NCBI GenBank assembly: GCA_965261435.1
Contig: CBDHDL010000021.1
Span: forward strand, 2,715,950-2,779,949
Reading direction: 5' to 3'
From: Candidatus Poribacteria bacterium
GTDB taxonomy: Bacteria; Poribacteria; WGA-4E; WGA-3G
DNA: 64,000 nt
Shown: positions 11,242 through 57,984 of the stretch, one piece after another
How the letters are laid out: each line of letters opens with the position of its first letter
How positions within the stretch are numbered: position 1 is the first letter of the stretch
Made by a program: the position numbers and the translations under genes
The notes under the pieces: generated by a model
The model's database searches: none
What the model saw: only the letters and a program-made list of their open reading frames with translations
What the model was told of the DNA's origin: nothing

Positions 11242-11242
11242 C

Positions 11243-12880
11243 TTAATATTCGCCTCCTAAAGATTCTGCTTGGATTTCCCTTATCAACTCCAGAATTCTT
11301 TGTTCCTTATGGATAATACTATCAGCAATTTCCTCAGGAGGCAGATGCACTAAAGTTTCCGCGCTGTTTGGGTTCTTGATATCTAAATCCGCTGCGACAA
11401 CCTTCTCCTCTTCATCATATTTTAAGACATCCTCAATGTCAATCTTCCACGCATACTCATTTTCTTGTCGTTCTGAAATCGGATGGAACCACTCAATACA
11501 GTCTGAAAATTCCTCAAATCTCATAGGTTTTGTCTTCGTATAGTTTTTTCGACCTTCAGGAAGCGGAATCTCATAGAACCATATTTCCTTGGTCGGATGG
11601 GAACGGTCGAAAAAGAGTAGGTTCGTTGGAATGCCGGTATATGGTGCGAAAACCCCTTTCGGCAATCGAACAATCGTATGAAGATTGAAGTTCTTAAGCA
11701 GTTCTTCCTTAATACGTGCACAGACTCCATCTTCAAAAAGTGTTCCGTTTGGTACAACAACAGCAGCACGTCCCGGCTTCCCTTTATTGCGTTCCGGACG
11801 TTTGAGTCTTCGCATGATAATCTGGAGGAATAGCAGCGCGGTTTCTGAAGTTTGCATGTTGGTTGGGAAATAGTCTTTGACGCTTTTCTCTTCTTCACCA
11901 CCAAAGGGTGGATTGGTAAGAATAACATCGTATCGGTCATTGTCGCCAATTTCGTTAAACCTTTTGACGGTGAGAGAGTTTTTAAAGTCAATCTGTGGGT
12001 TTTCCAATCCATGCAAAAGGAGATTCATCTGGCATAGAAGGTAAGGGATCGGTTTCGCTTCTATTCCGTAGATAGTAGCTTCTTGAAGCGTTTGCCGGTC
12101 AGCAATGGTTTGGCACTGTTTTTCAAGGTGGGTAAATGCCTCAACAAGAAAACCGCCGGTGCCGCTGGCAGGATCAAGCACAGTTTCACCGAGTTGAAGA
12201 TCCGTTACCGCAACGATAAAATTGACAACAGGTCGGGGTGTGTAAATTTCACCAGAGTCCCCTACGGCATCGCGCATTTCCCGAAGCATCGTTTCATAAA
12301 AACGGCTAAGCGTATGCATTTCCTCGGATGCATCAAAATGGATACTGTTGACTTTGTTAACTATATCTCTGAGTAGCCAACCAGATTGTATCCGATTAAT
12401 GATTCCTCTGAAAACAGTTGCAATGACATCTTCACGACCCTTCCCATCTGCAGATCGAAGGCTACGTAAATAGTGAAAAAGCCCTTGGCCTTTAGTGCCA
12501 TCTGGAAGATTTGCCTCTTCAAGATTGATAAAGTTTATCAGATCTTCCCCCGTGATGCCGCCTTCATCTGCTGCCCAATCTCTCCAGCGGTACGGCTCAT
12601 TAATAAGTGGGTGAAAATCTTTGCCTGCAAGTTCAGCTTCCGATTCCCGGATATGTTCCATGTCATCAATGAATTTGAGAAACATAATCCAAGTTAGCAT
12701 CGGAATTCGGTCTAACTCACCGCTAAGTCCTTTGTCCTTACGCATAATGTCGCGGGCAGATTTGATAAGCGTGTTCAACTCCTGCGCCGTTGTTTGCGAG
12801 TTTTCTAATTTCTCTAATAGGTGCAACTGTTTGTGGTTTTGTGTCATATCATTCCTCTCTTTGTATATATTATGCCTCAT
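11243..12880 (-). CDS. hsdM: Type I R-M N6-adenine DNA methyltransferase
   Basis: It has an HsdM N-terminal domain, FxGxG (DPASGTGGFL), and NPPFGG. The start may instead be the ATG at 12847. Confidence 0.9.
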   Translation of the reverse strand: MRHNIYKERNDMTQNHKQLHLLEKLENSQTTAQELNTLIKSARDIMRKDKGLSGELDRIPMLTWIMFLKFIDDMEHIRESEAELAGKDFHPLINEPYRWRDWAADEGGITGEDLINFINLEEANLPDGTKGQGLFHYLRSLRSADGKGREDVIATVFRGIINRIQSGWLLRDIVNKVNSIHFDASEEMHTLSRFYETMLREMRDAVGDSGEIYTPRPVVNFIVAVTDLQLGETVLDPASGTGGFLVEAFTHLEKQCQTIADRQTLQEATIYGIEAKPIPYLLCQMNLLLHGLENPQIDFKNSLTVKRFNEIGDNDRYDVILTNPPFGGEEEKSVKDYFPTNMQTSETALLFLQIIMRRLKRPERNKGKPGRAAVVVPNGTLFEDGVCARIKEELLKNFNLHTIVRLPKGVFAPYTGIPTNLLFFDRSHPTKEIWFYEIPLPEGRKNYTKTKPMRFEEFSDCIEWFHPISERQENEYAWKIDIEDVLKYDEEEKVVAADLDIKNPNSAETLVHLPPEEIADSIIHKEQRILELIREIQAESLGGEY

Positions 12881-15200
12881 AAATCAACTTCTGAAGTTCT
12901 GCAACAGCATTTCGTAGTTGCTCTGCCCCTTTGAATACTTTTAAGATTTCACGAATATTGCCAAACTCAGAAATAGGTGGAACGTTTAAAGCATCAGGGA
13001 TTTTCAGTTCGTCGGGGCCGTGTTGACTATATTTATCAAGCAAAATCCCAAGTACATACTGGCCAATAACGTCGTACTGTTTAAAAAAATCTGTATTGTC
13101 TTCTTGGACTCGTTCCGCTCGTTGTTTTCTTGTCTGGAGGGGAGCCCCGAAAGCGACATGGCAAAACAGATCAATTGAATCAAAGGTGTCACCATCTGGG
13201 AGTTGTAATTCTTTCACTAACTGTTCTCTTTCAATACCGAATTGTCCCAATTCGTCAATAGTTTCACTGCGTGATTGTTGGTCTATCCACTTTTCACGCA
13301 GTTTAGATTCAAATTCGTAAAGCGTATAGATTTTATCACTTACATATTCTATGTATGTTTTATGTTGCTGACTTCCATCAGGATTCAGGATAATAACTCC
13401 GTCTTCAGCAATCGTCACTGTCCCTTCATCAACATAGAACTTTTGCCCCTTTGACGGTTGAACAGAAGTGCGTTTTCCTCTACCTTTGTTTTGTTGACGA
13501 TCAGTATCTGTTTCTATAACTTCTTCATCTTCGTCTATCGGCTCGCCATCAAAATCAGGGTCTGCAAAATGTTTAAACGACGCTCCTGTGTAATCAATAA
13601 TATTAAAAGTGAATTTGTCATATTCCTCACAGACACGAGTCCCTCTACCAATCATCTGCTTAAATTCAACCATTGAACCAACACCGCGTGCAATAGCAAT
13701 ATTTTTCACTGTTGGAGCATCAACACCAGTAGTGAGGAGCTTAGAAGTAGTCACAATGATAACAGAATCATCCTCAATATCTTGGAATCGACTGAGACGT
13801 TCACGACCATATTCGCCTTCGTCGGCGGTTATACGACTTACATAATCGGGATATCTTTGGACATGCTCAGCGTTTAGATTAGAGAGGATTTCTCGCATGG
13901 TGCCTGCATGCTCTTGGTCAACACAAAAAACAATAGTTTTGGCGTACGGATCAGATTCCAATAAACCTGTCAAATGTTTTGCAATTGCTTCCGTACGCGG
14001 TCTTAAAGCAAGTGTATTTTCAAAGTCTTCAGTGTTGTACTGCTTATCAGGTATTATTTTACCATGTCGATCAGTTTGTCCTGGATCAGGTTGCCAACCC
14101 TCTGCATCTGCTGTAGTTAAGACGTGTCGAACACGATAAGGGGCAAGGAACCCATCTTCAATACCCTGTTTAAGTGTGTAGGTATAGACAGGATTTCCAA
14201 AATATTGATAGGTGTTCCGAGTCTCTTCGTGAAGAGGTGTAGCAGTCATACCGAGTTGCACTGCTGGTTCAAAGTATTCCAGAACTACCCTCCATTGACT
14301 ATCATCTTGAGCAGAGCCGCGGTGACACTCATCCACAATAATAAGATCAAAGAAATCCTTTGCGTATTCGCGATAGATACCAGGATTATCCTCTCTGGGA
14401 CCGATAGATTGATAAAGCGCGAAATAGATACCTCGGCTTTTGACAACTTCACCTTGTTCTATCCGATGTCGTGCCTCTCCAAAAGCTGCAAAGTCTTTAT
14501 TCATTGGATCATCCACAAGGATTTTCCTATCGGACAGGTAAAGAATTTTGGGAAGACGCGGGTCTGTTTTGAGATTCCAACGTTGTTGCCAAAGTTTCCA
14601 ACAAATTTGAAATGCAGTGGTGGTTTTTCCTGTTCCAGTTGCCATTGTCAAAAGAATTCGTCTTTGATCTTTTACAATGGCCGAAATAACATTACTTATC
14701 GCAATTTGTTGATAGTACCTGGGGATTTTACCGCCAGTAAGGTCGAACGGTGAAAGAATAATATCTTCCTGTTGTGTAGTAAAACCTTCATGTGTTTTTA
14801 GGCGTTGCCAAAGTTCCGCTGGTTGAGGCATTTCGTAGAATTTAGACTCTACACCTGTTAAAAAATCAAACTCCACAAATAGTTCACCATTTGTAGAGTA
14901 CGCAAATTTAAGCCCTAACATTTGCGCGTAAGTTTTCGCTTGTTGGAGGCCATCAGCTGGCAATTTGCAATCTGCTTTTGCCTCAACAACAGCAATCGGA
15001 AAATGGGGTTGCCGGTAGTAGAGGATATAATCGGCACGTCTTGCTTTACCGCGTATTCCTTCACCTTTTATTTTCCCATCTGTGAAATGATGCTCACGGA
15101 CAAAAGATGGTACTTCTGGATTGTTTGAATCGTCCCAACCGGCATCTTTCAGCAGAGGATCAATGTTTCTGGTCCGCGTTTCAGCTTCATTCATAGTCAA
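12870..15200 (-). CDS. hsdR: Type I restriction enzyme R subunit
   Basis: The N-terminus is HsdR_N (EAETRTRNIDPLLKDAGW). It has Walker A MATGTGKTTTA, DEAH-like IVDECHRGS, and helicase motif VI QMIGRGTR. Confidence 0.85.
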   Translation of the reverse strand: MTMNEAETRTRNIDPLLKDAGWDDSNNPEVPSFVREHHFTDGKIKGEGIRGKARRADYILYYRQPHFPIAVVEAKADCKLPADGLQQAKTYAQMLGLKFAYSTNGELFVEFDFLTGVESKFYEMPQPAELWQRLKTHEGFTTQQEDIILSPFDLTGGKIPRYYQQIAISNVISAIVKDQRRILLTMATGTGKTTTAFQICWKLWQQRWNLKTDPRLPKILYLSDRKILVDDPMNKDFAAFGEARHRIEQGEVVKSRGIYFALYQSIGPREDNPGIYREYAKDFFDLIIVDECHRGSAQDDSQWRVVLEYFEPAVQLGMTATPLHEETRNTYQYFGNPVYTYTLKQGIEDGFLAPYRVRHVLTTADAEGWQPDPGQTDRHGKIIPDKQYNTEDFENTLALRPRTEAIAKHLTGLLESDPYAKTIVFCVDQEHAGTMREILSNLNAEHVQRYPDYVSRITADEGEYGRERLSRFQDIEDDSVIIVTTSKLLTTGVDAPTVKNIAIARGVGSMVEFKQMIGRGTRVCEEYDKFTFNIIDYTGASFKHFADPDFDGEPIDEDEEVIETDTDRQQNKGRGKRTSVQPSKGQKFYVDEGTVTIAEDGVIILNPDGSQQHKTYIEYVSDKIYTLYEFESKLREKWIDQQSRSETIDELGQFGIEREQLVKELQLPDGDTFDSIDLFCHVAFGAPLQTRKQRAERVQEDNTDFFKQYDVIGQYVLGILLDKYSQHGPDELKIPDALNVPPISEFGNIREILKVFKGAEQLRNAVAELQKLIYEA

Positions 15201-17701: not shown

Positions 17702-18307
17702 TTATACCTTTTGTGCCACCATACTGGAAAGGATACCGAGAATCCTATCACACCGCTCAATTGTATAAGGTGTCATATCAATATGCAAACACTTTCCTTG
17801 CAACTTCAGAAATATCCACTGAACTCCTGTTGTACTTGCTCCATAAACAGTAGAAATGTCATTACCTCTATCAGCATTGAAACGTTGGACTGCGATCATC
17901 TCTGCAACACACTGTCCAAGTCCAAGTTTTAAATCGTGATTTTTTGCCTGGACAAGCGCGATAATCGGTGCATCCAAATAAAATTGTTCAGGTGACAGAC
18001 TCACTAAAAAATCACACACGCCGGTCAAACCTTTTTCAGCATCAACGCTGAAGTCAATACCAGAAAACAGACTAATGCTGTGATCAAAGTGCTCAAGAAG
18101 GTCAACGAGCACGGCAACAACTATCATTTCTGACCTTGCTTTCTCGGTACCGATAGCGGTGGCTAATGATGCCTTTCGCGCTAATCCCATCGTGAGATAT
18201 GTGCTTGGCTCCACTGGTTCTATTTCAGAGAAGAGACCTAAAGACCGAACCGTATTGAGTTGAAACGTTTTCTGCACAATTTCTAAGGTAAACTCACTAT
18301 ACGCCAT
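17702..18307 (-). CDS. PD-(D/E)xK-motif protein, paralog 3 (variant QAK in place of EAK)
   Basis: 201 aa, with GVCDFLVSLSP ... IIALVQAKN. About 55-60% identical to its neighbours. Confidence 0.7.
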   Translation of the reverse strand: MAYSEFTLEIVQKTFQLNTVRSLGLFSEIEPVEPSTYLTMGLARKASLATAIGTEKARSEMIVVAVLVDLLEHFDHSISLFSGIDFSVDAEKGLTGVCDFLVSLSPEQFYLDAPIIALVQAKNHDLKLGLGQCVAEMIAVQRFNADRGNDISTVYGASTTGVQWIFLKLQGKCLHIDMTPYTIERCDRILGILSSMVAQKV

Positions 18308-18356
18308 GTGAGAATTTCTCCATGCAGTACGTTAAGACAATAACTATTGTATAACC

Positions 18357-18962
18357 TTACGCCTTTTGTGTCACCATACTGGAGAAGATGCCGAGGATCC
18401 TATCACACTGAGCGATTTGGTAGGTTGACATATCAAGCTGCAAGCACTTTCCTTCTAACTTCAGGAATAACCAATCAACTCCTGTTGTAGACGCACCATA
18501 AACACAAGAAATTTCATTCCCTTTTTCGATATTAAAACGTTGTGCGGCGAGCATCTCTGCGGCACATTGTCCAAGTCCAAGTTTCAAGTCGAGATTTTTT
18601 GCCTCAACAAGCGCGATGACAGGTGCTTCTACATAAGATTGTCGAGGCGACAGGCTTATCAGGAAATCACACACACCCGTTAATCCGTTTTCAGCGTCAA
18701 CGTTGAAGTCAATGCCAGAAAATAGACTAATTTTGCGATCAAATCTTTCACGGAGTTCAACGAGAACATTAGAAACAATCAGTTCTGATCGTGCTTTCTC
18801 AGTGTTTATAGTAGTGGCTAAGGGTACATTTCTTGCTAATATATTTGTGAGTTCTGCACTGAGTTCCATCGGTTCTATTTCAGAAAAGATGCAGGCGTGT
18901 TCAACAAAATCAAGTTCAAATTCTTTTTCCACTGTCTCCAGCGTAAAATTGCTATAAGCCAT
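18357..18962 (-). CDS. PD-(D/E)xK-motif protein, paralog 2
   Basis: 201 aa, with GVCDFLISLSP ... VIALVEAKNLD (D..ExK). Confidence 0.7.
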   Translation of the reverse strand: MAYSNFTLETVEKEFELDFVEHACIFSEIEPMELSAELTNILARNVPLATTINTEKARSELIVSNVLVELRERFDRKISLFSGIDFNVDAENGLTGVCDFLISLSPRQSYVEAPVIALVEAKNLDLKLGLGQCAAEMLAAQRFNIEKGNEISCVYGASTTGVDWLFLKLEGKCLQLDMSTYQIAQCDRILGIFSSMVTQKA

Positions 18963-18992
18963 ATCTGTACCTCCTGGTTCCTCTAACTCCTC

Positions 18993-19598
18993 TTATACCT
19001 TTTGTGCTACCATACTGGAGAGGATACCGAGAATCCTATCACACCGCTCAATCGTGTAGATTACCATATCAATATGAAGACGGTTCCCTTCCAATTTAAG
19101 AAATTTCCAGTCTGTCCCTGAAGTGGTGGCACCATAAAAACACTGGATATCATTTCCTTTTTCGGCATTAAAACGTTGTGCTGCGATCATCTCCGCGACA
19201 CACTGTCCAAGTCCGATGAGAAGGTCATCTTTTTTCGCCTCAACCACGATAATAACGGGTGCCTCCAAAAGAGATTGCCGCGGGGACAAACTCACTAAGA
19301 AATCACACACCCCGGTTAATCCGTTTTCAGAATCAACGTTGAAGTCAATGCCAGAAAAAAGGCTGATACTACGATCAAAGTGCTCAAGGAGGTCAACGAG
19401 CACATCAGCAACGATCATTTCTGACTTTGCCTTCTCTGTGCCTATTGTCGCAGCTAAGGGAGCTTTTCTTGCCAAAGCTGTCACGAGATGTGCGGTCGGA
19501 TCAACCGCCTCTATTTCAGAAAAGAGTCCTACAGTATCAACTGCTTCAAGCTGAAATGCTGGCAGCACCGACTCTAAGGTCCATTCGCTATAAGACAT
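18993..19598 (-). CDS. PD-(D/E)xK-motif protein, paralog 1
   Basis: 201 aa, with GVCDFLVSLSP ... VIIVVEAKKDD. Confidence 0.7.
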   Translation of the reverse strand: MSYSEWTLESVLPAFQLEAVDTVGLFSEIEAVDPTAHLVTALARKAPLAATIGTEKAKSEMIVADVLVDLLEHFDRSISLFSGIDFNVDSENGLTGVCDFLVSLSPRQSLLEAPVIIVVEAKKDDLLIGLGQCVAEMIAAQRFNAEKGNDIQCFYGATTSGTDWKFLKLEGNRLHIDMVIYTIERCDRILGILSSMVAQKV

Positions 19599-19639: not shown

Positions 19640-21571
19640 TTATTCCTTCTTCTCTTCATCCTCATTCGCATCTTCATCAACGACTTCGTATTCAGCATCA
19701 ACGACATCGCCTTCAGGAACATCTTCAGAAGGAGCATCACCGGGTGGAGTTCCCTGTTCGGCGTCTGCTGTCTGTTGATAAAGTTGTGCAGAAGCTTCAT
19801 GCCAAATCTGCATCAGGTCGTCGGTAGCTGATTTTATCTCAGCACTGTTGTTTGCTTCCAATGCTTGCTTGACACGTTCAACACCAGCGTTAACCTTTTC
19901 CTTCGTCGCATCGTCTACCTTGTCGCCAAATTCCTGTAGATTTTTCTCAGTTTCATAGACTAAAGAATCGGCACGGTTGCGGTTTTCAACTTCCTCACGT
20001 TTCTGTTTATCCTCTTCAGCGTGGGTTTCTGCATCCTTCACCATCTGTTCAATTTCAGCATCGGTGAGACCGGAAGAAGCAGTGATTGTGATCTTTTGCT
20101 CTTTACCTGTCGCAGTATCCTTAGCAGAGACGTTAAGGATACCGTTCGCATCAATATCAAATGTAACTTCAATCTGCGGAACCCCTCTGGGTGCTGGCGG
20201 AATATCACCGAGACGGAAACGACCAATGGTCTTGTTATAGACCGACTGTTCGCGCTCCCCTTGAAGCACATGAACATCAACAGCAGTCTGATTGTCTTCC
20301 GCTGTAGTGAACTTCTCAGATTTCTTCGTGGGAATAGTCGTATTTTTTTCTATTAAACGCGTAAACATACCACCGAGTGTTTCAATACCGAGTGAAAGTG
20401 GAGTCACATCAAGCAATAAGATGTCTTTGACTTCTTCGTCACCAGCGAGAACACCACCTTGAATAGCGGCACCGACTGCGACCACTTCATCAGGATTTAC
20501 ACCTTTGTGCGGTTCTTTTCCAAAGAGTTGCTGTACGGCTTCCTGAACTTTCGGCATCCGTGTCTGTCCACCAACGAGTATGACTTCATCAATCTCGGAG
20601 GGTTGCATCTCGGCATCAGCAAGTGCTTGTTTGCACGGTTCAAGGGAACGTTGAACGAGGTCATCAGTGATCTGTTCCAGTTTTGCACGTGTGAGTGTAA
20701 GGTTAAGGTGCTTCGGTCCACTGGCATCTACAGTAATAAACGGCAGGTTAATATCTGTCTGTAATGTGCTGGAAAGCTCACACTTTGCAGTTTCCGCGCC
20801 TTCTTTTAAACGTTGCAATGCCATCTGATCATTTCGCAGGTCAATACCCTGGCTACTCAGAAATTCTTGAGCCATCCAATCAATGATAGTCTGGTCAAAA
20901 TCATCACCACCGAGCCGTGTATCCCCGTTCGTACTTTTCACTTCAAAGACACCGTCACCGATCTCCAGAATAGAGATGTCAAATGTACCACCACCAAGGT
21001 CGTAAACAGCGATCTTCTTGTCGCCTTCATTCTGTAGTCCATACGCGAGTGAGGCAGCAGTGGGTTCATTGATAATCCGCAAAACTTCCAAACCTGCGAT
21101 TTTACCAGCATCCGCAGTAGCTTGACGTTGAGAATCGTTGAAGTAGGCAGGCACGGTGACCACAGCTTGCGTGACCTCTTCTCCAAGATACGCCTCTGCA
21201 GTTTCCTTCATTTTTCGTAAGACCATCGCTGAAATTTCAGGTGGCGTGTATTCCTTACCGTCAATATTTACGGCTGCATCGCCATCTTTATCGCCTTTTA
21301 GTTCATAAGGCACTCTGGAAGTATCATCACCGAGTTCGTTAAACTTTCTCCCCATGAATCGCTTGATGGAAAAAATTGTATTTTCGGGGTTCGTTATAGC
21401 TTGTCTTTTGGCGACTTGCCCGACAGGACGTTCTCCCTCTTTGGTAAATCCGACAACCGAGGGAGTCGTCCGATTCCCTTCCGCGTTTTCAATAACCTTT
21501 GCATCGCCGCTCTCTAAGACAGCCACACAAGAATTCGTTGTTCCCAAATCAATTCCAATTACTTTAGACAT
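19640..21571 (-). CDS. dnaK: molecular chaperone DnaK (Hsp70)
   Basis: [14 protein letters not shown] and DLGGGTFD are Hsp70 signatures, and the C-terminus is acidic. The true start is MSKVIG, after a GGAGAT RBS. No grpE or dnaJ is adjacent. Confidence 0.97.
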
Positions 21572-21682
21572 TTTTATCTCCAATGTATATGTATCATTTA
21601 ATGTTCTATCGTCAACAAACTAATACCATTTCTATAAATCATTGTCTCATTAGACGGTTATGATGGTAGTTATTCTTCAGGA

Positions 21683-26498: not shown

Positions 26499-29400
26499 TC
26501 AGTTATCTTGAAAAATTGGAGAGAGGTAACTGAGATCGTTTTCGTCTGGAAAGAGGATGTGCCATTTTTCTTGCAATTCCTGTTTACCCTTACCGCCTCT
26601 ATAACGCAGTTTTGTAAGAGGCGTTTGTGAGATAATAAAGGAATCCATTTGCACATGTTCGCCACGGAAACGTTCATAAGAGAAATCGCGTAGTCTTTTG
26701 AATTGCATAATCTTTGGATTGTTTTCATTTATAGGTTCATGTATCATACCGTGTGGTTCAATGAAGACGATACGTTGTTTCGGTTCTTCCAGTATCCACA
26801 AGATAAAATCGGGGTAGAAACCTTCATTTACGTAAAAACCGATTCCTCTACCACGACTCTGGTTTCGTAAGAGAAAAACCTCTTTTTTAACGAGTGTTTC
26901 TTCGTGCTGTTTACGCGCATAAGATCGGAGGTCTCTTACAAAATTTTCCTCGCTTTTTTCTAATGCAGGTGGGGTGATGCGTAACGTTGTGTTTTCACCA
27001 TCTACAGTCAAAAGTGGTTGATATAGATGTCGCTCATTATGGATGTTAGGGAGATCAGTTATATCAGGTCCGTATATGCTACCATCTTCTATTAGATGTT
27101 TGATGATCGGTTCAAGTTCTTCCGACTTATCTCTCGGAATGGATATTTTCCAATCTATAAAGTTACGATTCTTTTCGTCTAAATGTTTTAAACGCACGCC
27201 TTCATCATTCCAACGTTTCTGAATGATACGGTAAAATTTGGTGATATATTTGCGGAGGAGCGTAAGTACTAATTCCTCCAACTGTTCAAGTTGCTCTAAT
27301 GATTTCGGCTCAATTTCACACCTATTCATAATTTTGAGTTCATACAGAGGATTGTCTGTATTGAGGATACCCCTGAGAATATCGGCATCAAAAACAAGGT
27401 TGTGATACCCTTTTTCCTGCTTATACTCAAGAAGTTGAAGATAGATTTTTTCCCAATCTACCAAATCTAAGTATTCCTCTTTAATTGAAGTTTCGATTGC
27501 CGCTTCTGCGCGTTCGTCTTGGATACCCTCTTCTGAACTACTACCAATAATATTAACGGTTTGGGTTGTATACGTAACAATTATATCCTCACACGCCTCA
27601 AGCATAACACACTTTCCTTTTGCAGCTTTGTCATAAGACAGGACTTTGGGAACATAAAGCCGTTTTGAAAGATGATCCATATTGCGTTTAATGGGTAATT
27701 CCATGTGAATTGGATCTTCACATGGAACCCCTTCTCGCCTGAGGTATTCTTGGAAGTCTTCCATGAAGTTAGCACGCACAGCAAAGATATTGAGCGTCTC
27801 CAAAAGTGAAAGGTTAGGCGGATGATCGCCATCAAGCGCAGCACTTCGTTTGAGACTCATACCTTTGCCGCGTAGACGGACACCACGACCAAACAGCTGG
27901 ATAATCTGAGAACCTTCCTGTCTGCCGATGTTGAGCAATCCCATTGTGGTGACTCGCCAACTGTCCCATCCTTCAATAAACTTTTTTGCGCCGATGAGAA
28001 TATTGATTGAACTTTCAGGTTTGTTGATGTCGTTAAAGAGACTATCTGTTAGTACATCTTCAGGATCCATGACGATTCCCGCATTGTCATTTTGGACGAG
28101 TTTTTTAAACTTAGGCACATCACCAATGTTGATAAGTCCAAATTCCTTGTTACCGTAAGTGGTTTTTAAGGCAATTTCACCCTGTGCATTTTGGACATCA
28201 CAAAGATGTATGGCACCGCTTGAATCGGTGTGGAAAACCTCCTTGAGAATGTCAGTATAGATTTGTGATGCCGTTTCTGCTGCACCCTTGAGATAATCGA
28301 ATCGATTTTTAAAAATATCGTCATCTTGGTCAACGGACAAACCCGACTCACCTTTGAGAATAACTTCTATGCCTTGAATTGCCCATCCTTTTTCATTTCT
28401 CAGGAATCGATGTAGAAAGCGGATGACGTTTAGGACATCTGAACGCGTATAATTTTGATAAACGACGTTCACTTTACTGCCGACAAATGTCCACAATGGT
28501 GGGTCTAAGCCGTAAGTACGGACGCTGTCAGTGTTTTCCTTGAAATAACGTTTCTGTTGATAGAAACTGAGGAGATTCGCTAAAAAGAGCATTTCGGTTT
28601 GGGTTTCGTTATCGTGCCCAACGTTGATGATACGGAAGTCCTTCCCGTATCCATTGCTGTAGAAATGTCGGTAAGAGTAGTCGAAAACGATGGCTTTTCC
28701 ATATTCATCAACGAGGTCGTCATTTTTGGCAGCGGCGAGTGCTTGTCTAAAGGTTGCACTGTACTCAAAGGTAAAACCTTGTTCGGCAAGAGTTTCACGA
28801 TGATAGCGCCAGACAGGATCAGTACTGCTTGTTCCCTTGTGTCCTTCATCTACAAGGATTAGGTTATTACCTTCAAATGCCTCAACTGCCACACTTTCAC
28901 CTTCACCTGTCTTTTCTTTCACCAATTTTGTGATTTCAATGACCTGGACAGTGTTATGGGAACGGATGTTCTGATTGCCTTCAACGTTGAATCTTTCGCA
29001 TCGGATATCGGAGTTAGCGAGTTCACGCATGTGTTGTTCGCTTAATCCTTCGTTCGGTGTGATCAGGATGACGTGGTCTAACATATCTTTGCAGTAGTGG
29101 AGGTACTGGTGATAGTTAATGTGCATCATAAAGGTCTTGCCGGCACCGGTCGCCATCCACAGTGCCAGTTTTTCAATATCGGTTTTTGTGAAGTCAGTAT
29201 CCCTGGGATCGCCAGGTGCTTTCAGGGCATTTTGGGATCGGACGAATGTATTGAGTTGATGAAGGAATTCGCCAGGTTTGTTGAATTTCCAGTCTAAGAA
29301 TATCTCGGTATAAAGCAGGGACAGGTATTGAAAATAACGGAGAACAATCGGTTGTGTACGTTTACTGTTTATAGCGGATAGGTGGCGTTTGATATTGGCA

Positions 29401-29615
29401 TCGTAGATTGGTAATGCATTCTCAATCTCATTCTTCAGATCTTGGCGGGACATCAGAAATTCGCAGATGAGTGAGTGACCATTTGAAGTAAAACCCTCGT
29501 CAATGTTTGCAACATCACTAAGTAGGTCCCGAGTAGTTTCATACCCGAATTGGTTATTTAACCATCCGTGAAGAATAAGATGATTGTTGAGTTCTTTTGT
29601 TTTTTTTCTGGGCAT
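26499..29615 (-). CDS. Type III restriction enzyme Res-like subunit (SF2 helicase plus C-terminal nuclease-like motif)
   Basis: Walker A is MATGAGKT, the DExH box is LVDEGHKG, motif III is SAT, and motif VI is QLFGRGVRLRG. The C-terminus has PDFILWI..VFIEPHG (PD-ExK-like, with K replaced by H?). It lies immediately downstream of the mod-like gene. Confidence 0.65.
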   Translation of the reverse strand: MPRKKTKELNNHLILHGWLNNQFGYETTRDLLSDVANIDEGFTSNGHSLICEFLMSRQDLKNEIENALPIYDANIKRHLSAINSKRTQPIVLRYFQYLSLLYTEIFLDWKFNKPGEFLHQLNTFVRSQNALKAPGDPRDTDFTKTDIEKLALWMATGAGKTFMMHINYHQYLHYCKDMLDHVILITPNEGLSEQHMRELANSDIRCERFNVEGNQNIRSHNTVQVIEITKLVKEKTGEGESVAVEAFEGNNLILVDEGHKGTSSTDPVWRYHRETLAEQGFTFEYSATFRQALAAAKNDDLVDEYGKAIVFDYSYRHFYSNGYGKDFRIINVGHDNETQTEMLFLANLLSFYQQKRYFKENTDSVRTYGLDPPLWTFVGSKVNVVYQNYTRSDVLNVIRFLHRFLRNEKGWAIQGIEVILKGESGLSVDQDDDIFKNRFDYLKGAAETASQIYTDILKEVFHTDSSGAIHLCDVQNAQGEIALKTTYGNKEFGLINIGDVPKFKKLVQNDNAGIVMDPEDVLTDSLFNDINKPESSINILIGAKKFIEGWDSWRVTTMGLLNIGRQEGSQIIQLFGRGVRLRGKGMSLKRSAALDGDHPPNLSLLETLNIFAVRANFMEDFQEYLRREGVPCEDPIHMELPIKRNMDHLSKRLYVPKVLSYDKAAKGKCVMLEACEDIIVTYTTQTVNIIGSSSEEGIQDERAEAAIETSIKEEYLDLVDWEKIYLQLLEYKQEKGYHNLVFDADILRGILNTDNPLYELKIMNRCEIEPKSLEQLEQLEELVLTLLRKYITKFYRIIQKRWNDEGVRLKHLDEKNRNFIDWKISIPRDKSEELEPIIKHLIEDGSIYGPDITDLPNIHNERHLYQPLLTVDGENTTLRITPPALEKSEENFVRDLRSYARKQHEETLVKKEVFLLRNQSRGRGIGFYVNEGFYPDFILWILEEPKQRIVFIEPHGMIHEPINENNPKIMQFKRLRDFSYERFRGEHVQMDSFIISQTPLTKLRYRGGKGKQELQEKWHILFPDENDLSYLSPIFQDN

Positions 29616-29635
29616 TTCAGTATTCTTTGGCGGAT

Positions 29636-32600
29636 TTATTCTGAAAACATCAATCGTTTGAATATCGGATCTAAGGATTTAGCATCTGGAATGTTGCTGC
29701 ATGTGTTTACATATACTTCGTCTATGTCTACTATTAGTTCTTGTTCCTGAATGAACTGGTAATCGCGTTCATAGTTTTCTTGCCCCCATCCCGCAGTTTC
29801 ACGCCAGATAATGACAACAGTTTTTTGATCAACTATACCTTTGTAGACAAGATAACGTCTTTCACCATCTTGCAGACACTGACGAGTCTGAACTGATAAA
29901 CCCAATAGATAGTTGAAGGTTTCAGGTAAGTCTACTTTCTGCGTTTGTGGCTGCATGTCTTTGACAATCTTGAGTTTGTAGCTAAATGGGTCTTGTAGTT
30001 CAGAGATGTTTAGGAGTGTTTGACTTTCCTTTGTCTCACTTTCCAACATATAACGCAATCGGTGTTCGTCAGTTAGCAGGACTCTTTCGTTATCGGATTC
30101 GTTGAATTCTATGTTATTAAGGGCATCTTCATAGGATTCAATGCGTTGGTATTTGAAAATGTGGGAAAGACAGCTATCACGGGAGACAGGTTTGGAATCT
30201 TTCCATTTTTCAGCATAGACAGCTTTTTTGACGCGAGGCATCAGGACAGTATCAAAATGATGCGCCATTTCAATAAGGATGTATTTACGGTTTCCATTGT
30301 CTTTACGATTGAGATTGATAACAGCATGGGTATTTGTCCCACTGCCAGCAAAAAAGTCAAGTGTCATGCCTTCTCCATCAGGTGTAACTGACCAAACGAG
30401 TTTTTCATACAAACCTACGGGATGAGAATACGGAAAATCTAAACCAAACGCGTCCAGTTGGTGTTTGCCTCTTTCACCAGTAGAAATTACAGACGTTAAT
30501 TCACCTATCAGGTTATCTTTCAAATAACACTTTCTGCGTGGTTGAGTTGTTTCGTCAATCCCAAAACTAACTTCATTATTCTGTAATAAATCATCTATGT
30601 ATTCTGGGGTACTTGACCAACCATTTTTTGGCACAGGACAAGGTTTCTTAGTAATAGGATGAATTAAAGGTCTAAAGTATTTAGGATCTGTTCGAACATC
30701 TCCAGCTCCCATGTGGACTGTTGTATAAACATGTCCATTTTCGTCAATTGCAGAATAAGATCGTTCCATTCCGCTTAACTCTCTTTTCGTGTTGATCCAA
30801 GTTTTATATTCATTACGACATTGGACTGTAACTCCACCATGTGCTTTCACTAATGACGATGCTTTTCTTAGTATCATTTCACCATTAGCATGCTGTGACT
30901 TTAATTTCACATTTCCCTTAGAATGACAAATAGTATATTCGTGTTGTGTTGCTATCGTATTTGATGCTCCAATGGGGTTCCTTTTATCCCATACAACTGT
31001 CCCTTGATCATCCATTGATAGTGTTTTAAAAAACAAAAAGAGTTTCTCATATTCGCTCTCGTCAATATGGGAGAAGAAACAACTATCCTGGGCCATAAAA
31101 TGTTCAGATAAAGTCAATCTATCTGCCATCATTGATAACCAACTTGAATGCTGGTATGAGTTTTTATAGAGAAACCCACTTGTTTGCGTATTATACGGTG
31201 GATCAATATGTATGCATTTTATTGATTCACGATATTTCTCCGTCAGCAGGTTTAGTCCTTGAAAGTTCTCACCGTGAATTAGCAAACCTTCTGTCTCGCC
31301 ATCCAGATCGTCAAAATGCGCCAAGAGGCGATCCTTGAAGATAGAATCAAAATGACAGGTATCCAAAACGAGATTCGGATTTTCTTTGAGAAAGTCAACG
31401 GAGAGCGGTTCGGTATATTCTGTATTGATAAGGTTTTTGTCTATTTCGTGAATAGTAAATAGGTCTTTCCATTCCTCAAGTTGTGCAGTATTCTCTGCAA
31501 TTTCTGGGTAGAAATCTTCTGGCACACGGTCAAGTGTGAGGCAGTAGTCGGTGGATAGAACAAATTTCTTTTTCAGCCAGAGACGTTTTTGGAATTCCTC
31601 AATGTGTGCTAAGAAGTCAATAATCTGTGCAGCAATGTGATGGAAAATCTTGCTTGTTTCAATCCAATTTACTTTCTTCAGGTCATCATCATTGAAATTG
31701 ACATCATCAAAAATAAGGGAGGACATCGGTATCACTTCGCTTTTGATATAAACATCCAGTTCGCGGGCAAGAAATCTCTTTAGATCTTTGTGAATAAAGA
31801 AGTCTGCGGAGTTACGACGTGTGTATCTCTGAAGGTGTGTTTTAAGAAGTGTTACTTCATCTGTTGCTTGTGCCAACTTGCTCTGAATTGTATAATCGTT
31901 TTTCAGATTTGTTAGGATTTCTTTCTCAGCCGTTTCAATGATCTTATCTTGTTGTTTTTGGCCTTTATATACAATTTTCTCTGCATCATTAAGTGGACGG
32001 TATTCAAATGGGATGCAAACTTCATCGGTTTCAGCGTTATAGGTTGTTTCGGAAGATAGAGGAAGGAAGAAACGTTTGACTCCTTTGACGTTGTCTTTTT
32101 CAATATCTACATTTTTCAAATCAAAAATGACAGTGGTGCTACCGACTTTGACTCTATACTCAGAGAAGTGTTCACCACTCTTGACGTAATACTGGTCTCG
32201 GTTTGCCCAATGGAGATATACCTCTTCACCGTTATATGGCACTGCATAACGTTCGGTCTGTGAATAGCGTCTGCGTGGAATGAAGTCACCGTTATCGTAG
32301 TAACGTGAAAAGAAAGTATAAAGGTGATTGAATACGTTATATGAACGTTGGTCAGAGGTTTGCGGGGAACCGATTTGCTCTTGTGCTTCAAGGTATTCCT
32401 TAACCAAGGGACGTTCTTTCACTGTTGCATCAATGAGATCTCCATCAGCGTTTAGAACATCAGCACCAAAAGCATTTATCACCTGACTCCTTAAATCTTC
32501 CAGTTTTTCGCGATCTGATTCAATTTCTGCATTTGCATTAAGCGCGTTTTCAATGATGCTTGGAATTTCCTCTTGAATGAAACTTTGGATGAGATCGCGC

Positions 32601-32722
32601 CGATGATTGATAATACGATAAATACCGAAGTCAAGGTCAGCGACATCTGCGCGGAATAACTTTTGAAGTAAGGATTGTAGTTTTTGTAAGGATTCGGAGC
32701 GGTTGTTTTGAGTTTGTTGCAT
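29636..32722 (-). CDS. beta-class N6-adenine (or N4-C) DNA methyltransferase, Type III Mod-like, with a ~400 aa N-terminal extension
   Basis: Motif IV is IHIDPPYNT (~aa 510) and it precedes motif I LDFFAGSGTNTH (~aa 780), which is the beta-class order. At 1028 aa it is far larger than a typical Mod. Confidence 0.65.
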   Translation of the reverse strand: MQQTQNNRSESLQKLQSLLQKLFRADVADLDFGIYRIINHRRDLIQSFIQEEIPSIIENALNANAEIESDREKLEDLRSQVINAFGADVLNADGDLIDATVKERPLVKEYLEAQEQIGSPQTSDQRSYNVFNHLYTFFSRYYDNGDFIPRRRYSQTERYAVPYNGEEVYLHWANRDQYYVKSGEHFSEYRVKVGSTTVIFDLKNVDIEKDNVKGVKRFFLPLSSETTYNAETDEVCIPFEYRPLNDAEKIVYKGQKQQDKIIETAEKEILTNLKNDYTIQSKLAQATDEVTLLKTHLQRYTRRNSADFFIHKDLKRFLARELDVYIKSEVIPMSSLIFDDVNFNDDDLKKVNWIETSKIFHHIAAQIIDFLAHIEEFQKRLWLKKKFVLSTDYCLTLDRVPEDFYPEIAENTAQLEEWKDLFTIHEIDKNLINTEYTEPLSVDFLKENPNLVLDTCHFDSIFKDRLLAHFDDLDGETEGLLIHGENFQGLNLLTEKYRESIKCIHIDPPYNTQTSGFLYKNSYQHSSWLSMMADRLTLSEHFMAQDSCFFSHIDESEYEKLFLFFKTLSMDDQGTVVWDKRNPIGASNTIATQHEYTICHSKGNVKLKSQHANGEMILRKASSLVKAHGGVTVQCRNEYKTWINTKRELSGMERSYSAIDENGHVYTTVHMGAGDVRTDPKYFRPLIHPITKKPCPVPKNGWSSTPEYIDDLLQNNEVSFGIDETTQPRRKCYLKDNLIGELTSVISTGERGKHQLDAFGLDFPYSHPVGLYEKLVWSVTPDGEGMTLDFFAGSGTNTHAVINLNRKDNGNRKYILIEMAHHFDTVLMPRVKKAVYAEKWKDSKPVSRDSCLSHIFKYQRIESYEDALNNIEFNESDNERVLLTDEHRLRYMLESETKESQTLLNISELQDPFSYKLKIVKDMQPQTQKVDLPETFNYLLGLSVQTRQCLQDGERRYLVYKGIVDQKTVVIIWRETAGWGQENYERDYQFIQEQELIVDIDEVYVNTCSNIPDAKSLDPIFKRLMFSE

Positions 32723-54015: not shown

Positions 54016-54741
54016 ATGACATTATTTTTCCGGTTTACTCTATTTCTTTGTCTGATACCATTCATTCATATTGCAACTGCTAATGGTGCATCGTGGGTTG
54101 AAGACTTTAACGATTTATCTTTCAAATCATGGGTAAAGGATGATCCTAACAATCGGTCTACTTGGCAGCCAAAAGATGGATACTTAGATGTCTGGGCTCA
54201 GCCTTTTCCACCACCTGGAATATATGATACGTATGCACTACAGTTCAACGGATTTCAATTTGATGCACAAACAATTAGTGTGCAACTCAAGATTCTTGAA
54301 GCACGCGGCGGAAGTGTTGGTATTCTTATCGGACAATATGATGATGGGCAATTGAGTATATATCGCAAGACAGTTGCATTTCTACACACAGCTGCTCTAA
54401 GCGGAGTGATTTTTAAACCTAAGGAATTTGAGATAATTAAAAAGGATAAAACAGATAAACCAATTCCTACGCCACTTAAGGCAATAGAGATCTCATTTGA
54501 CAAGGGTGATTTTGAGGTGTATACCAAACGGCAATTTATCGCAAAATATCATATTCCTCAACTCAAGACAGTTAATTTCCTCGGGATAGTTTCTATAGTA
54601 GATATGGGACGGGGTGCGATTGCACACTTTGTTTTAGATGACTTTGTAATTTCTGGTCCCAATGTTCCTGCACACGGAACATTAGACGTGATTCCTAAAC
54701 ATAAGGCTGCTGTCCTGTGGGGTAAGCTAAAAAAACGGTAA
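54016..54741 (+). CDS. secreted protein consisting of the same C-terminal module, ending ..AAVLWGKLKKR
   Basis: It has a signal peptide. SWV(E/K)DF.., F(L/I)GIV.., and DDFVISGP..LDV.PK.K..VLWGKLK are shared with the 52291 product. Confidence 0.7.
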   Translation: MTLFFRFTLFLCLIPFIHIATANGASWVEDFNDLSFKSWVKDDPNNRSTWQPKDGYLDVWAQPFPPPGIYDTYALQFNGFQFDAQTISVQLKILEARGGSVGILIGQYDDGQLSIYRKTVAFLHTAALSGVIFKPKEFEIIKKDKTDKPIPTPLKAIEISFDKGDFEVYTKRQFIAKYHIPQLKTVNFLGIVSIVDMGRGAIAHFVLDDFVISGPNVPAHGTLDVIPKHKAAVLWGKLKKR

Positions 54742-55149
54742 TTAAGTGTTTTGCCCGATTTCGGCGTGACTGTTACGTCGGCTACAAGGATATAATCGCT
54801 TTCACTATCAAAGAGATGTGCGCGAAAAAACACCCAGAAGAGTGTTGTCCACGGCACAAACGTGTTGAAAAAGCGTTGTATAGTGCGGTAACTACCGCCT
54901 TTTGATGTCCACCAAGAGATATTTTACATTGTCACTCGTCCCGTCATCGCAAGTTTAGCAAATACAATGTGCGATAACTGTCGTATAAGCGTTGTAGATA
55001 AATATGGAATAAAAACCTTAAACAGTGCTATAATGTCTGGCATGGGCGATTGTCCTTTCAAAGTTATTTTTTATTCTATCTATAACTTTAGGACATTTGC
55101 CCAATTTATTAAACAATTTTGGCGAAGGTATTGTAATAAGGAATATATA

Positions 55150-57654
55150 ATGAAAATTTTGTTTATCCTATCAATCACAGTTCTAATTGTATTCGCTGTT
55201 GGATGTGATGAAATGCAAAATCAGATGACGAAACCTACGATGATGTCTGACGACGAAGTTCCGCCAGAGGATGCCGTAGTTACATCCGTGGGTACGATGA
55301 AGGAGCCACCTGCTGAAACTGATGACAAAAAAGAGGAACCTGCTACGGAGACCGATGATTCTCAGGATGATTCCTCTGATGAGAAAGAGACCGATGATTC
55401 TCAGGATGATTCCTCTGGGACACCTCAAACTATGGAAGAGGATACCACTGATGAGAATAACGTTCCAATGGAAGATCCCCCTGATGTCCCACCAACGCCT
55501 ACGGCAACCTTTGTAAGCGCTTCACCCACAAGCGGAGATATATCGGAAAACGATAGCATCACCATCGAATTTGACAACGACCCAGGCACCGTAACAGCAA
55601 GTGCCGGGACAGTCACAGGGTCTGGTAATTCGCGGACAATCAACGGTCCTTTCTCTGTCGGGCCGCTGACTCTGACAATTTCATGGACAAACGGTGACGG
55701 AAGCTACACACTGAACTATAACGTCGTTGCCGTAGATACAACCTCACCATCAGTTACAATCAGCAGTACTACAAACGGTGCTACGGACGTTGACCCTGAT
55801 GCAGTATTTGCAAGTGGCATCACCGTCTCCTTCAACGAACCGATTAGTAGCGGAAACCTGATGTTGTTGAGAAACGGTGTAGATGTCGGTTGGACAGCAA
55901 GCACTTCAGGTAGGACAATCACGCTCACTGCAAATACTGGTCAAGAACTCAGCCACGAAACAACATATCAGATCGTTGGCACTGTCAAAGACGCAGCCGA
56001 TAACGAAACCAATGTTAGCATCAGCTTCACAACCGGATCTGCACCTCCGCCGCCAACGCCTATTGCAACCTATGTAAGCGCGTCACCCACAAGCGGAGAT
56101 ATATCGGAAAACGATAGCATCACCATCGAATTTGACAACGACCCAGGCACCGTAACAACAAGTGCCGGGACAGTCACAGGGTCTGGTAATTCGCGGACAA
56201 TCAACGGTCCTTTCTCTGTCGGTCCGCTGACTCTGACAATTTCGTGGACAAACGGTGACGGAAACCACACACTGAACTATAACGTCGTTGCCGCAGATAC
56301 AACCTCGCCATCAGTTACAACCAGTAGTATTACTAACGGTGCTACAGACGTTGACCCTGATGCAGTATCTGCAAGTGGTATCACCGTCACCTTCAGCGAA
56401 GTGATTAGCAGCGGAAACCTGAGGTTGTTGAGAAACGGTGTAGATGTCGGTTGGACAGCAACGATTTCAGGTAGGACAATCACGCTCACTGCAAATACTG
56501 GACAAGAACTCAACCACGAAACAACATATCAGATCGTTGGCACTGTCAGAGACGCTGCAGATAACGAAACCAATGTTAGCATAAGCTTCACAACCGGATC
56601 TGCACCTCCGCCGCCAACACCTATCGCAACCTATGTAAGCGCGGCACCCACAAGCGGAGATATATCGGAAAACGATAGCATCACCATCCAATTTGACAAC
56701 GACCCAGGCACCGTAACAGCAAGTGCCGGGACAGTCACAGGGTCTGGTAATTCGCGGACAATAAACGGTCCTTTCTCTGTCGGTCCGCTGACTCTGACAA
56801 TTTCGTGGACAAACGGTGACGGAAACCACACACTGAACTATAACGTCGTTGCCGCAGATACAACCTCACCATCAGTTACAACCAGCAGTACTACAAACGG
56901 TGCTACGGACGTTGACCCTGATGCAGTATTTAAAAATGGCATCACCATCACCTTCAGCGAAGTGATTAGCAGCGGAAACCTGAGGTTGATGAGAAACAGT
57001 GTAAATGTCGGTTGGACAGCAAGCATTTCAGGTAGAACAATCACGCTCACTGCAAATACTGGTCAAGAACTCAGCTACGAAACGACATATCAGATCGTTG
57101 GCACTGTCAGAGACGCAGCCGATAACGAAACAAATGTTAGCATCAGTTTCACAACCGAATCAGCACCTCCGCCACCTGAGCCACTGGCTCCGGGAGAAGG
57201 CTTAAGGATCGGTGTCGAAGCACCAGATTTTACATTGCCTGACGGTAGTGGAAACGACAACACCCTTTCGGACAGCATCGGTAGCAGTAATATTGTAATC
57301 GTGTTTTTCCGAGGTAATTGGTGACCGGTTTGTCGAGGGCAACTCAGTGAGTTGCAAGAGAACTACGATGCCATTTCAGCAGCCGGCGGATCGCTCATCA
57401 CTATTAGTGTAGATACTGTCACCAAGACCCAGGAAACAGTAGACCTACTTAGTCTCACGTTCACTGTGCTGTCTGATACCGGCCAATCAGCAGTTTCGGC
57501 TTACAACGTAGTTTCTCAAATTAATACTGCTCTTCCCCGTCCTTCAGTCTTTATCATTAAGACAGATGGAACTATTGGATGGAAATCTCTTGATTCTACG
57601 TATTCAAGGACTTCTGCTTCTACCATTATAAGTGCATTGAAAGAACTTGATTGA
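55150..57654 (+). CDS. lipoprotein with three ~180 aa Ig-like tandem repeats, C-terminally fused to a TlpA/redoxin-like thioredoxin-fold domain; in-frame TGA at 57322-57324 is a candidate selenocysteine codon
   Basis: The lipobox VFAVGC follows the ATG at 55150 (RBS AAGGAA). ORFs 54967..57324 and 57352..57654 are in the same frame, separated only by the TGA. Read-through gives FFRGNW-U-PVCRGQ, aligning to the redoxin FWASWCGPCR motif. A hairpin lies 14 nt downstream. Confidence 0.55.
57339..57355 (+). other. candidate bacterial SECIS-like hairpin (GCAACUC-AGU-GAGUUGC)
   Basis: It has a perfect 7 bp stem. Its apical loop contains G and U and lies 22 nt after the UGA, within the 16-37 nt window described for bacterial SECIS elements. 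Confidence 0.4.
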
Positions 57655-57984
57655 TGCTTCCTTGTTTCTAATTGCAAATTATGCTACCTGGGCGTGGTAT
57701 CATACGCGTATGATACCCTATAAAGTTAGGCTTAGAAAGCCTTCCAACAAGAGAGAATCTGGTAATTATGTTCTTAAATTGACAGTAATGGGGTTTCGCT
57801 TTTGTTTTACCCATAAATCAACGATGTGAATGCGCGGATGGCATTTGGCCAAATCAACACCAAATGCGCGTATAGCATTTGGTAGGGACGATATGTTTAT
57901 AGTTAAACGTTACTATAGTTTGGACAGTTTTCAGATTGTTTTGTGTTGTTATGATTCATTAGAATACGTTGCTTACATCGTGAA

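Follow-up and report, generated by a model that had tools for sequence, protein, structure and literature searches.

The question raised by this locus is whether a single in-frame TGA separates two neighbouring genes or stands inside one gene as a codon for selenocysteine (Sec). The window, by which we mean the whole stretch of DNA analysed, is 64,000 nt from a Candidatus Poribacteria bacterium (assembly GCA_965261435.1, contig CBDHDL010000021.1, positions 2,715,950-2,779,949, forward strand), and the TGA lies at window positions 57322-57324. Public gene calls cut the region here into an upstream open reading frame (ORF) of 785 or 724 amino acids (aa) and a downstream ORF of 100 aa. We propose that 55150-57654 is one complete gene of 834 codons plus a stop, encoding a lipid-anchored Sec redoxin that is likely a thiol-disulfide oxidoreductase, with Sec at codon 725 and its partner Cys at codon 728. 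From the comparisons given below we put the probability of this reading at roughly 0.85, and decoding of UGA 57322 as Sec is the part of it that we hold most firmly.

The upstream ORF ends at 57322-57324, the 100-aa ORF starts from TTG 57352 in the same frame, and nine sense codons lie between the two, an arrangement that the original prediction, made from the letters of the window without database searches, had described correctly. Read through, the junction is ..IVIVFFRGNW-[UGA]-PVCRGQLSELQENYD.., or in a longer view ...SNIVIVFFRGNW-[UGA]-PVCRGQLSELQENYDAISAAGG... When the TGA is translated as Cys, the C-terminal 164 residues match the AhpC-TSA profile (PF00578) over positions 1-123 of 124 (E 4e-29, 101.5 bits, the Pfam gathering cutoff being 26 bits), whereas the upstream ORF alone matches profile positions 1-37 only. 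Since the full profile is matched only on read-through, a single thioredoxin fold spans the TGA, which bears out what had been claimed for the fold. The redoxin domain so defined occupies 57208-57582 (plus strand, as do all parts of the gene given here) and aligns with the PDB entries of the peroxiredoxin BCP (2cx3) and of ResA. The plainest alternative is that the UGA is a true stop, leaving two genes (an immunoglobulin (Ig)-repeat lipoprotein and a 100-aa protein from TTG 57352), a pseudogene or an assembly error. All public gene calls do split the region in this manner, and a TTG start is available 30 nt 3′ of the TGA, but each half would hold an incomplete thioredoxin fold, and the nine intervening codons are conserved in frame, including an invariant Pro and an invariant Cys. 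Recurrence of the TGA in 14 independent assemblies, equal purifying selection on its two sides, at least 119 further metagenomic examples and linkage to selB and selC, all described below, also speak against a true stop, and we consider it very improbable.

When the read-through domain was used as the query, 17 homologues came back (53-99% identity), all of them fragments of about 100 aa that begin at the same TTG, with no full-length Cys-containing orthologue in that search; the window's own 100-aa ORF is identical to the database protein P0001. The DNA of 14 distinct orthologues was compared, and every orthologue from the genome collections comes from a Candidatus Poribacteria metagenome-assembled genome (MAG) or complete chromosome. 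Their protein identity over the C-terminal 100 residues is 54-83%. TGA is found at this codon, 30 nt before the TTG, in 14 of the 14, none of which has TGC or TGT there or terminates in another way, and this supports the Sec reading that had first been suggested. A relative with 44% identity over the C-terminal ~100 residues keeps the TGA as well. The codon pair before the TGA varies among orthologues (NW, RH, WW, KF, GW or RG) and the dipeptide after it varies at its second position (PV, PN, PF, PE, PW or PY); the TGA itself, the following Pro codon and the second Cys are invariant across all 14. Compared pairwise, the 44 codons upstream of the TGA have a median dN/dS of 0.38 and the codons downstream one of 0.41; because these values are alike, the two sides evolve as a single coding sequence.

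Of the 42 other long ORFs in the window, 11 end in TGA; the codon thus serves as a normal stop in this genome. A six-frame scan of the window found only one convincing TGA between two long open stretches, that at 57322. With the conserved TGA, the dN/dS values and the TGA stops taken together, a nonsense mutation, a sequencing error, two separate genes and a global reassignment are excluded for practical purposes; sequencing error at 57322-57324, which the original prediction had wanted checked, falls because many independent assemblies carry the same TGA. It could also be supposed that the UGA is decoded as something other than Sec, through near-cognate read-through with Trp or Cys or through reassignment of UGA, given that sequence alone cannot name the inserted residue. 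We regard this as the least probable of all the alternatives, since TGA ends other ORFs around it, the position is that of a redox Cys in homologues and of Sec in published family members, and dedicated SelB and tRNA-Sec genes stand beside the gene in relatives.

Wider relatives were sought with a profile-free search of 1.84 billion representatives, in which many sequences of 30-44% identity were also fragments of about 100 aa, beginning MQxNY. In the nearest Cys homologues (32-39% identity) the motif is F/Y-R-G-N-W-C-P-Y/F-C, its first Cys standing opposite the TGA, and the Cys homologues P0018, P0019, P0022, P0023 and P0159 share the form RG(N/H)W-C-xxC. The CxxC of Bacillus ResA (FWGTWCKPC, FWGTWCPHC; PDB 4nmu/3c71) aligns to the UxxC, and in a BLASTP comparison the peroxiredoxin (Prx)-like selenoprotein of Desulfotalea psychrophila is 29% identical over the whole domain (E 2e-23) with its U opposite the TGA. 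All three alignments agree with the original placement of the UGA at the first Cys of a CxxC motif, that is, at the N-terminal (attacking) position, with the resolving Cys encoded by an invariant TGT at 57331-57333. The D. psychrophila protein (...LTFFRGQWUPYCLAELEAL...) is listed as a "Prx-like thiol:disulfide oxidoreductase" selenoprotein (Zhang et al. 2006, PMC1794560), a 2026 review counts the Prx-like family (PF00578; UxxC or UxxU) as "predicted with high confidence" among bacterial selenoproteins (PMC13188914), and ocean metagenomes are rich in Prx-like UxxC groups (PMC2398784). The same representative search also returned P0156 (223 aa), a lipoprotein-type protein that shares the PSGEGL...APEF entry and matches AhpC-TSA in full; its active site VIVFDHSGESPFSQAHLRKLQ has neither Cys nor Sec, and this family member is apparently redox-dead.

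What the enzyme would do is a finer question, as the domain lies between two kinds of redoxin. A Pro codon, CCT at 57541-57543 (column +73 of the alignment), is invariant and aligns to the cis-Pro of ResA (P-L-P-T-S-F); the catalytic Arg of peroxiredoxins (A-K-R-A-V-F in 2cx3) would stand at this same site, where the window protein reads P-R-P-S-V-F, and the Arg adjoining the Pro is R, Q or L among orthologues. A CxxC together with a cis-Pro defines the thioredoxin-like thiol-disulfide oxidoreductases. Since the UxxC aligns to the former and the cis-Pro is present, exchange of the ResA/TlpA kind is favoured; from the sequence, a membrane-tethered extracytoplasmic selenol/thiol-disulfide oxidoreductase is the most likely product.

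The same gene could instead encode an extracytoplasmic selenol peroxidase, of the glutathione peroxidase (GPx) or Prx kind, that detoxifies peroxides from the host or the environment. Its best Pfam match is AhpC/TSA, its best solved relative by sequence is BCP 2cx3 (E 6e-13), with ResA following, and in the 2cx3 alignment the second Cys of the UxxC falls at the position of the peroxidatic Cys; oxidative stress is plausible for a sponge symbiont, and Sec, as GPx shows, needs no activating Arg to react fast with peroxides. R-G-N-W-U-P-V-C, however, stands where a peroxiredoxin would have its PxxxT/SxxC signature, the motif and its spacing match the ResA CxxC, the Arg site holds the invariant Pro, and no peroxiredoxin model of NCBIfam comes near its cutoff (SelL-related 40 against 120 bits, PrxU 35 against 270, with BCP and PrxQ far below theirs). 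We therefore lean towards an oxidoreductase over a peroxidase, and think the latter unlikely. The original prediction had named a redoxin of the TlpA/ResA/DsbE type; the CxxC and cis-Pro do align to ResA, but no NCBIfam model reaches its cutoff (ResA 51.4 against 170 bits, TlpA 23.8 against 230, DsbE 16.9 against 123), and the domain is better described as a Prx-like CxxC redoxin of the AhpC-TSA family.

A perfect hairpin, GCAACUC-AGU-GAGUUGC, follows the TGA at 57339-57355, its stem formed by 57339-57345 with 57349-57355 and its loop AGU by 57346-57348. It starts 14 nt after the TGA, with 21 nt from the TGA to the loop and a folding energy of -7.7 kcal/mol, and it is encoded by the codons for (x)QLSELQ. 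The model for the bacterial Sec insertion sequence (bSECIS) asks for a loop of 3-9 nt, a stem of 4-16 bp and a G in the first two loop positions (PMC13188914), and for 16-37 nt between UGA and loop with a minimum free energy (MFE) of -7.5 kcal/mol or below (PMC13188914). The window hairpin satisfies all four constraints (3-nt loop, 7 bp, 21 nt, -7.7 kcal/mol), in keeping with the SECIS-type spacing that had been pointed out for it. Only 0.7% of window positions are followed, at 16-37 nt, by a perfect 7-bp stem whose first two loop positions include a G. Across the 14 orthologues, RNAalifold found only this stem conserved in the 66 nt after the UGA.

Codon usage points to constraint on the RNA as well. 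Among conserved degenerate residues in codons +1 to +11 after the TGA, five of seven use a single codon (CCG, CAA, CTC, GAG and TTG); for the remaining such residues the ratio is 14 of 67 (Fisher p = 0.010; by Mann-Whitney on codon entropy, p = 0.002). Thirteen of 14 orthologues have G as the third base of codon +5, where it belongs to the outer G-C pair, even though the codon itself encodes G, A, T, K, D, S or E. To these can be added a scan of metagenome contigs with the pattern TGA-N6-TGY-N6-CARCTC-N3-GAGYTGCA, which matched at least 120 contigs. In 116 unique sequences the one free stem pair (third base of CAR with first base of YTG) is G-C in 100, A-U in 11, G·U in 5 and A·C in none. The control CAR codon at +11 has no association (A/A 6, A/G 5, G/A 61, G/G 41), nor does the control TGY codon at +3, and the contig GC ranges of the pair classes overlap; because of this the covariation is not due to composition, and the stem is a selected RNA structure. 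The loops of the metagenomic set all begin with G (GUG, GUC, GGC, GGU and others). Hairpin 57339-57355 is thus strongly supported by sequence comparison as a candidate SECIS under RNA-level selection.

In relatives the gene is linked to the Sec machinery. A conserved block of lepA, two or three beta-helix proteins, a signal peptidase I (S26) gene, the selenoprotein gene, a second S26 gene, selB, tRNA-Sec and lipA is found at L007:7167-13474 and also in L001, L002, L005, L006, L009-L015, L017 and L018, so that in those loci the selenoprotein gene stands between duplicated lepB genes directly upstream of selB-selC. In L005, L006, L007, L009, L010 and L011, selB and tRNA-Sec lie 1-3.5 kb downstream of the orthologue, SelB having been found by tblastn and tRNA-Sec by ARAGORN; the tRNA-Sec of L007 also matches Rfam RF01852 with 78 bits against a cutoff of 47. 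For the metagenomic contigs L012-L015, L017 and L018, selB is seen downstream in the gene tables only. The block arrangement is lost in the window and in L003, L004 and L008, its three closest relatives, where the gene is sited elsewhere; comparison of the window neighbourhood with those three showed WD40 repeat similarity only and no synteny. The 64-kb window itself holds no tRNA-Sec, and no sel genes by tblastn with E. coli SelD and Poribacteria SelB or by Pfam scans of 40 of its ORFs; the check for Sec machinery named in the original prediction came out in favour for most relatives as regards selB and selC, and empty for the window. Published work reports that SelA and SelB are enriched in bins of sponge symbionts (PMC5649159) and that Poribacteria have hydrogenases containing Sec (PMC13582414).

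Several observations weigh against this reading, and most of them concern the hairpin. Within Poribacteria the stem shows zero double compensatory changes, its only departures being a single C-G to U·G change and one broken outer pair, and a 70-nt single-sequence fold is no more stable than its shuffles (z = -0.19). Rfam has no family for the hairpin, either at the gathering threshold on the whole window or at a permissive E-value on 57250-57450, a null that is uninformative as no general bacterial SECIS model matched anything. QLxELQ is intrinsically codon-palindromic, the QL and EL codons being mutual reverse complements, which means that the protein motif by itself already yields part of the hairpin. 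The Cys homologue P0159 (L020:3001-3474; W-C-R-Y-C, TGT at the Sec position, 68% GC) keeps a hairpin, GCAGCUC-GGU-GAGCUGC, with the same spacing and a compensatory A-U to G-C change relative to the window; it may be a fossil SECIS that survived a Sec-to-Cys conversion, or may follow from the codon-palindromic QLGELQ as a by-product. As for the machinery, selA and selD were not located in the Poribacteria loci or in the window, and the presence of selB in the window's own genome is deduced through two database records. For the SelB homologue P0081 (645 aa, 81% identical to the SelB of L001, with all SelB winged-helix Pfam domains) and for P0001 alike, the record gives one contig with a length of 4,832,559 bp, and this identical length is good but indirect evidence that the window's genome carries selB. 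Lastly, no CcdA/DsbD or cytochrome-maturation genes were seen nearby.

Taken at their strongest, the hairpin observations would mean that Sec is inserted while 57339-57355 is a mere by-product of QLxELQ, the true signal for SelB being elsewhere or larger. The CRYC homologue and the missing double compensatory changes fit this, as do the 3-nt loop, an energy barely under the threshold and the weaker stems of two orthologues (-5.0 and -5.4 kcal/mol). Against it stand the synonymous sites frozen in just this stretch and the G held at the third base of codon +5, and it is further opposed by the covariation in 116 relatives without any A·C, a pattern not seen in the controls, and by the absence of any other conserved structure from RNAalifold. 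We think it quite improbable that the signal lies elsewhere, and we continue with the hairpin as the candidate SECIS.

The gene has further parts that bear on where its product would act. We take the true start to be ATG 55150 and not ATG 54967, on the basis of a Shine-Dalgarno-like AAGGAA read directly at 55138-55143, 6 nt before ATG 55150, and of the conserved lipoprotein signal that follows. This signal peptide, MKILFILSITVLIVFAVGC (55150-55206), ends in a lipobox whose Cys is encoded by 55204-55206 and continues into DEMQNQ, placing Asp at +2; by our own reading it satisfies the PROSITE lipobox rule. It is kept in all orthologues with a complete 5′ end, with the consensus MKIL..I(V/I)FA(V/A)GC-DEMQ. 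An acidic low-complexity linker of ~30% Asp+Glu (55207-55488) leads into three tandem 561-nt modules (55489-57171, starting at 55489, 56050 and 56611) of 94-95% nucleotide identity. Each module is composed of a CopC-like Ig domain and a Big_5 Ig-like domain and lacks Cys; Pfam on this upstream part gave Big_5 in three stretches (E 1.8e-32) and CopC (E 3.4e-14). Tandem Repeats Finder returned nothing, the 561-nt unit exceeding its period limit of 500 nt.

Besides Sec725, the only Cys residues of the protein are the lipobox Cys and Cys728. With Sec725 and Cys728 as the only redox residues apart from the lipobox Cys, the stalk is not a redox relay, and we read it as a spacer. Orthologues carry 1-6 small modules and range from 372 to 842 residues in total length; this range and the near-identity of the modules imply that recombination has lengthened and shortened the stalk recently and repeatedly. 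Copper binding by CopC needs an N-terminal His brace. A copper-binding role for the CopC-like modules was rejected, as internal repeats have no such brace, and the modules have no Cys.

Returning to the metagenomes, at least 119 genes have an in-frame UGA in the same redoxin domain together with the motif U-x-x-C...QL[VG]ELQ and the hairpin. They come from soil, sediment, freshwater and marine samples, and 119 of the 120 matches listed are true family hits when scored with a hidden Markov model (HMM) of the Poribacteria domain. These contigs came from the DNA-pattern scan; searching metagenome contigs at the protein level with the Poribacteria alignment had returned no relatives. About 19 members were printed, and signal peptides, lipoboxes and anchors were called on them by eye, with no predictor; most have one of these directly before the redoxin domain. 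One metagenomic member has an upstream IPT/TIG Ig-like domain (E 3e-10), and L019, one of the relatives of 30-44% identity from the representative search, shares the stem and the codon position of the TGA (U-G-A-C) and has a beta-sandwich domain upstream, with a weak CarboxypepD_reg match. An exported, Ig-fused selenoprotein had been expected to be unusual; with most of the printed members carrying a signal or anchor, and several of those scanned carrying beta-sandwich domains, it proved less unusual than expected. A large subgroup with FFRSADW-U-PYC...QLVELQ (L047, L023, L132, L134 and others) has a C-terminal extension of ~190 aa ending in YQACDDxxC, which weakly resembles DsbD_N, an Ig-fold, redox-active domain (E 1.4e-4, below cutoff), and suggests that a Sec redoxin may be fused there to a DsbD-alpha relay. 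Six representatives of the wider family were run against NCBIfam models and none reached a cutoff, and we could not map the large metagenomic group to any one named family. Homologues of selD (45-49% identical to E. coli SelD) stand beside UxxC redoxin family members on two short metagenomic contigs, at L036:177-1118 and L124:10-990.

Comparison with known systems places the window protein near, and yet apart from, each of them. The published Prx-like UxxC selenoproteins of D. psychrophila and Geobacter spp. (PMC1794560), and the Prx-like 1/3 groups (PMC2398784), share its Pfam domain PF00578, in which it scores above the gathering threshold, the F-F/Y-R-G-x-W-U-P-x-C context with Sec at the N-terminal CxxC position, and a function that is only predicted; the UxxC motifs are homologous (FFRGNW-U-PVC and FFRGQW-U-PYC). 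Published members are ~215 aa long, with an N-terminal helical extension, an insertion of ~23 residues before the cis-Pro region and no export signal. The window protein has neither the extension nor the insertion and carries instead a lipoprotein signal, an acidic linker and, across orthologues, 1-6 Ig-like modules, with a SECIS encoded by QLxELQ; the missing extension and insertion and the added signal and stalk concern its architecture and not its catalysis. Domain fusions in Prx-like selenoproteins were noted in the GOS (Global Ocean Sampling) study (PMC2398784). The metagenomic U-x-x-C...QL[V/G]ELQ redoxins share the domain, the UGA codon, the hairpin G-CARCUC-GNN-GAGYUG-C and its spacing; the Poribacteria clade differs in its own variable-length stalk of CopC-like and Big_5 domains, its lipobox, its UPxC dipeptide and its site between signal-peptidase genes upstream of selB-selC. 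It is, then, a member of a widespread and already known kind of selenoprotein to which Poribacteria add a lineage-specific tether.

ResA, TlpA and CcmG (DsbE) resemble the window enzyme in being membrane-tethered, extracytoplasmic thioredoxin folds with W-C-x-x-C and a cis-Pro, and differ in having Cys rather than Sec and in that the window domain scores below the cutoffs of their families. By analogy, their chemistry is most likely the model for this enzyme. The E. coli SECIS elements of the fdhF/fdnG type are likewise stem-loops in the coding region 3′ of the UGA, with a small loop of G then G/U, a spacing of 16-37 nt and an MFE of -7.5 or below (PMC13188914), whereas the window hairpin has the minimum 3-nt loop, a short perfect stem and no bulged U, and its binding by SelB is predicted.

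On analogy with E. coli fdhF, SelB·GTP·Sec-tRNA(Sec) would bind the hairpin as the ribosome nears UGA 57322 and Sec would be inserted at codon 725. The product of 834 residues would be exported, lipidated at Cys19 and tethered to the membrane on its extracytoplasmic side; the E. coli +2 Asp rule weakly hints that this might be the inner membrane. The acidic linker and the three Cys-free Ig-like modules would act as a lineage-variable stalk holding out the thioredoxin-fold domain. There, with W-U-P-V-C and a cis-Pro of the thioredoxin (Trx) type, the selenolate would attack a substrate disulfide (or a sulfenate or peroxide), Cys728 would resolve the adduct to an intramolecular selenenylsulfide, and an electron donor would reduce it again; the direction of electron flow and the substrate are both predictions of this scheme. 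Without selenium, translation would stop at the UGA and leave an inactive stalk.

Other features of the window lie outside this scheme. A 22-nt perfect palindrome, GGTATCATACGCGTATGATACC (57696-57717), stands 42 nt past the stop of the gene and lacks a U-tract; it may serve as a variant terminator or as a site for protein binding. A 241-aa ORF at 54016-54741 adjoins the gene upstream and has a signal-peptide-like N-terminus and no Pfam match, and no counterpart of it was found beside the orthologues in other loci. The window as a whole has 41.5% GC, and Pfam scans covering 40 of its ORFs found WD40, BNR, LamG and PhyH proteins, M16 peptidases, restriction-modification systems and tricarboxylic acid (TCA)-cycle enzymes. 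Two restriction-modification systems lie on the minus strand at 10078-15200 and 26499-32722: one is a type I hsdS-hsdM-hsdR set, and the other pairs a 1038-aa Res/helicase with a 1028-aa N6/N4 methylase. Three tandem paralogous ORFs of 201 aa (17702-18307, 18357-18962 and 18993-19598; together 17702-19598, minus strand) are directly downstream of dnaK (19640-21583), and the single one scanned had no Pfam match at E<1e-5.

The understanding of Sec decoding or of UxxC redoxins is unchanged by this gene, and a selenoprotein specialist would not be surprised by it. It does matter for annotation, as all copies found, and also the at least 119 metagenomic relatives, are mis-split, giving an Ig-repeat lipoprotein that is cut short and an "AhpC" fragment of 100 aa, and the DNA pattern given above, with 119 true hits among the 120 matches listed, is usable for correcting such gene calls. 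At the RNA level it provides a natural example of a SECIS stem built from a conserved alpha-helix motif, with measurable covariation. A bolder thought, which we offer tentatively and judge to be unlikely, is that the Ig-stalked Sec redoxin is a lineage-specific envelope or host-facing selenoenzyme and one of the main reasons the Sec trait is kept, with the fast-changing number of modules tuning the reach of the selenol over the periplasm or out to the cell surface; in most genomes the gene stands between two signal-peptidase genes upstream of selB-selC. A further tentative thought is that the QLxELQ hairpin would be a pan-phylum, protein-coupled class of SECIS able to outlive Sec-to-Cys conversion. 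For the uncultivated, sponge-associated Poribacteria, whose selenoproteome has been little studied, the gene adds an exported, membrane-tethered predicted selenoprotein that is linked to selB-selC.

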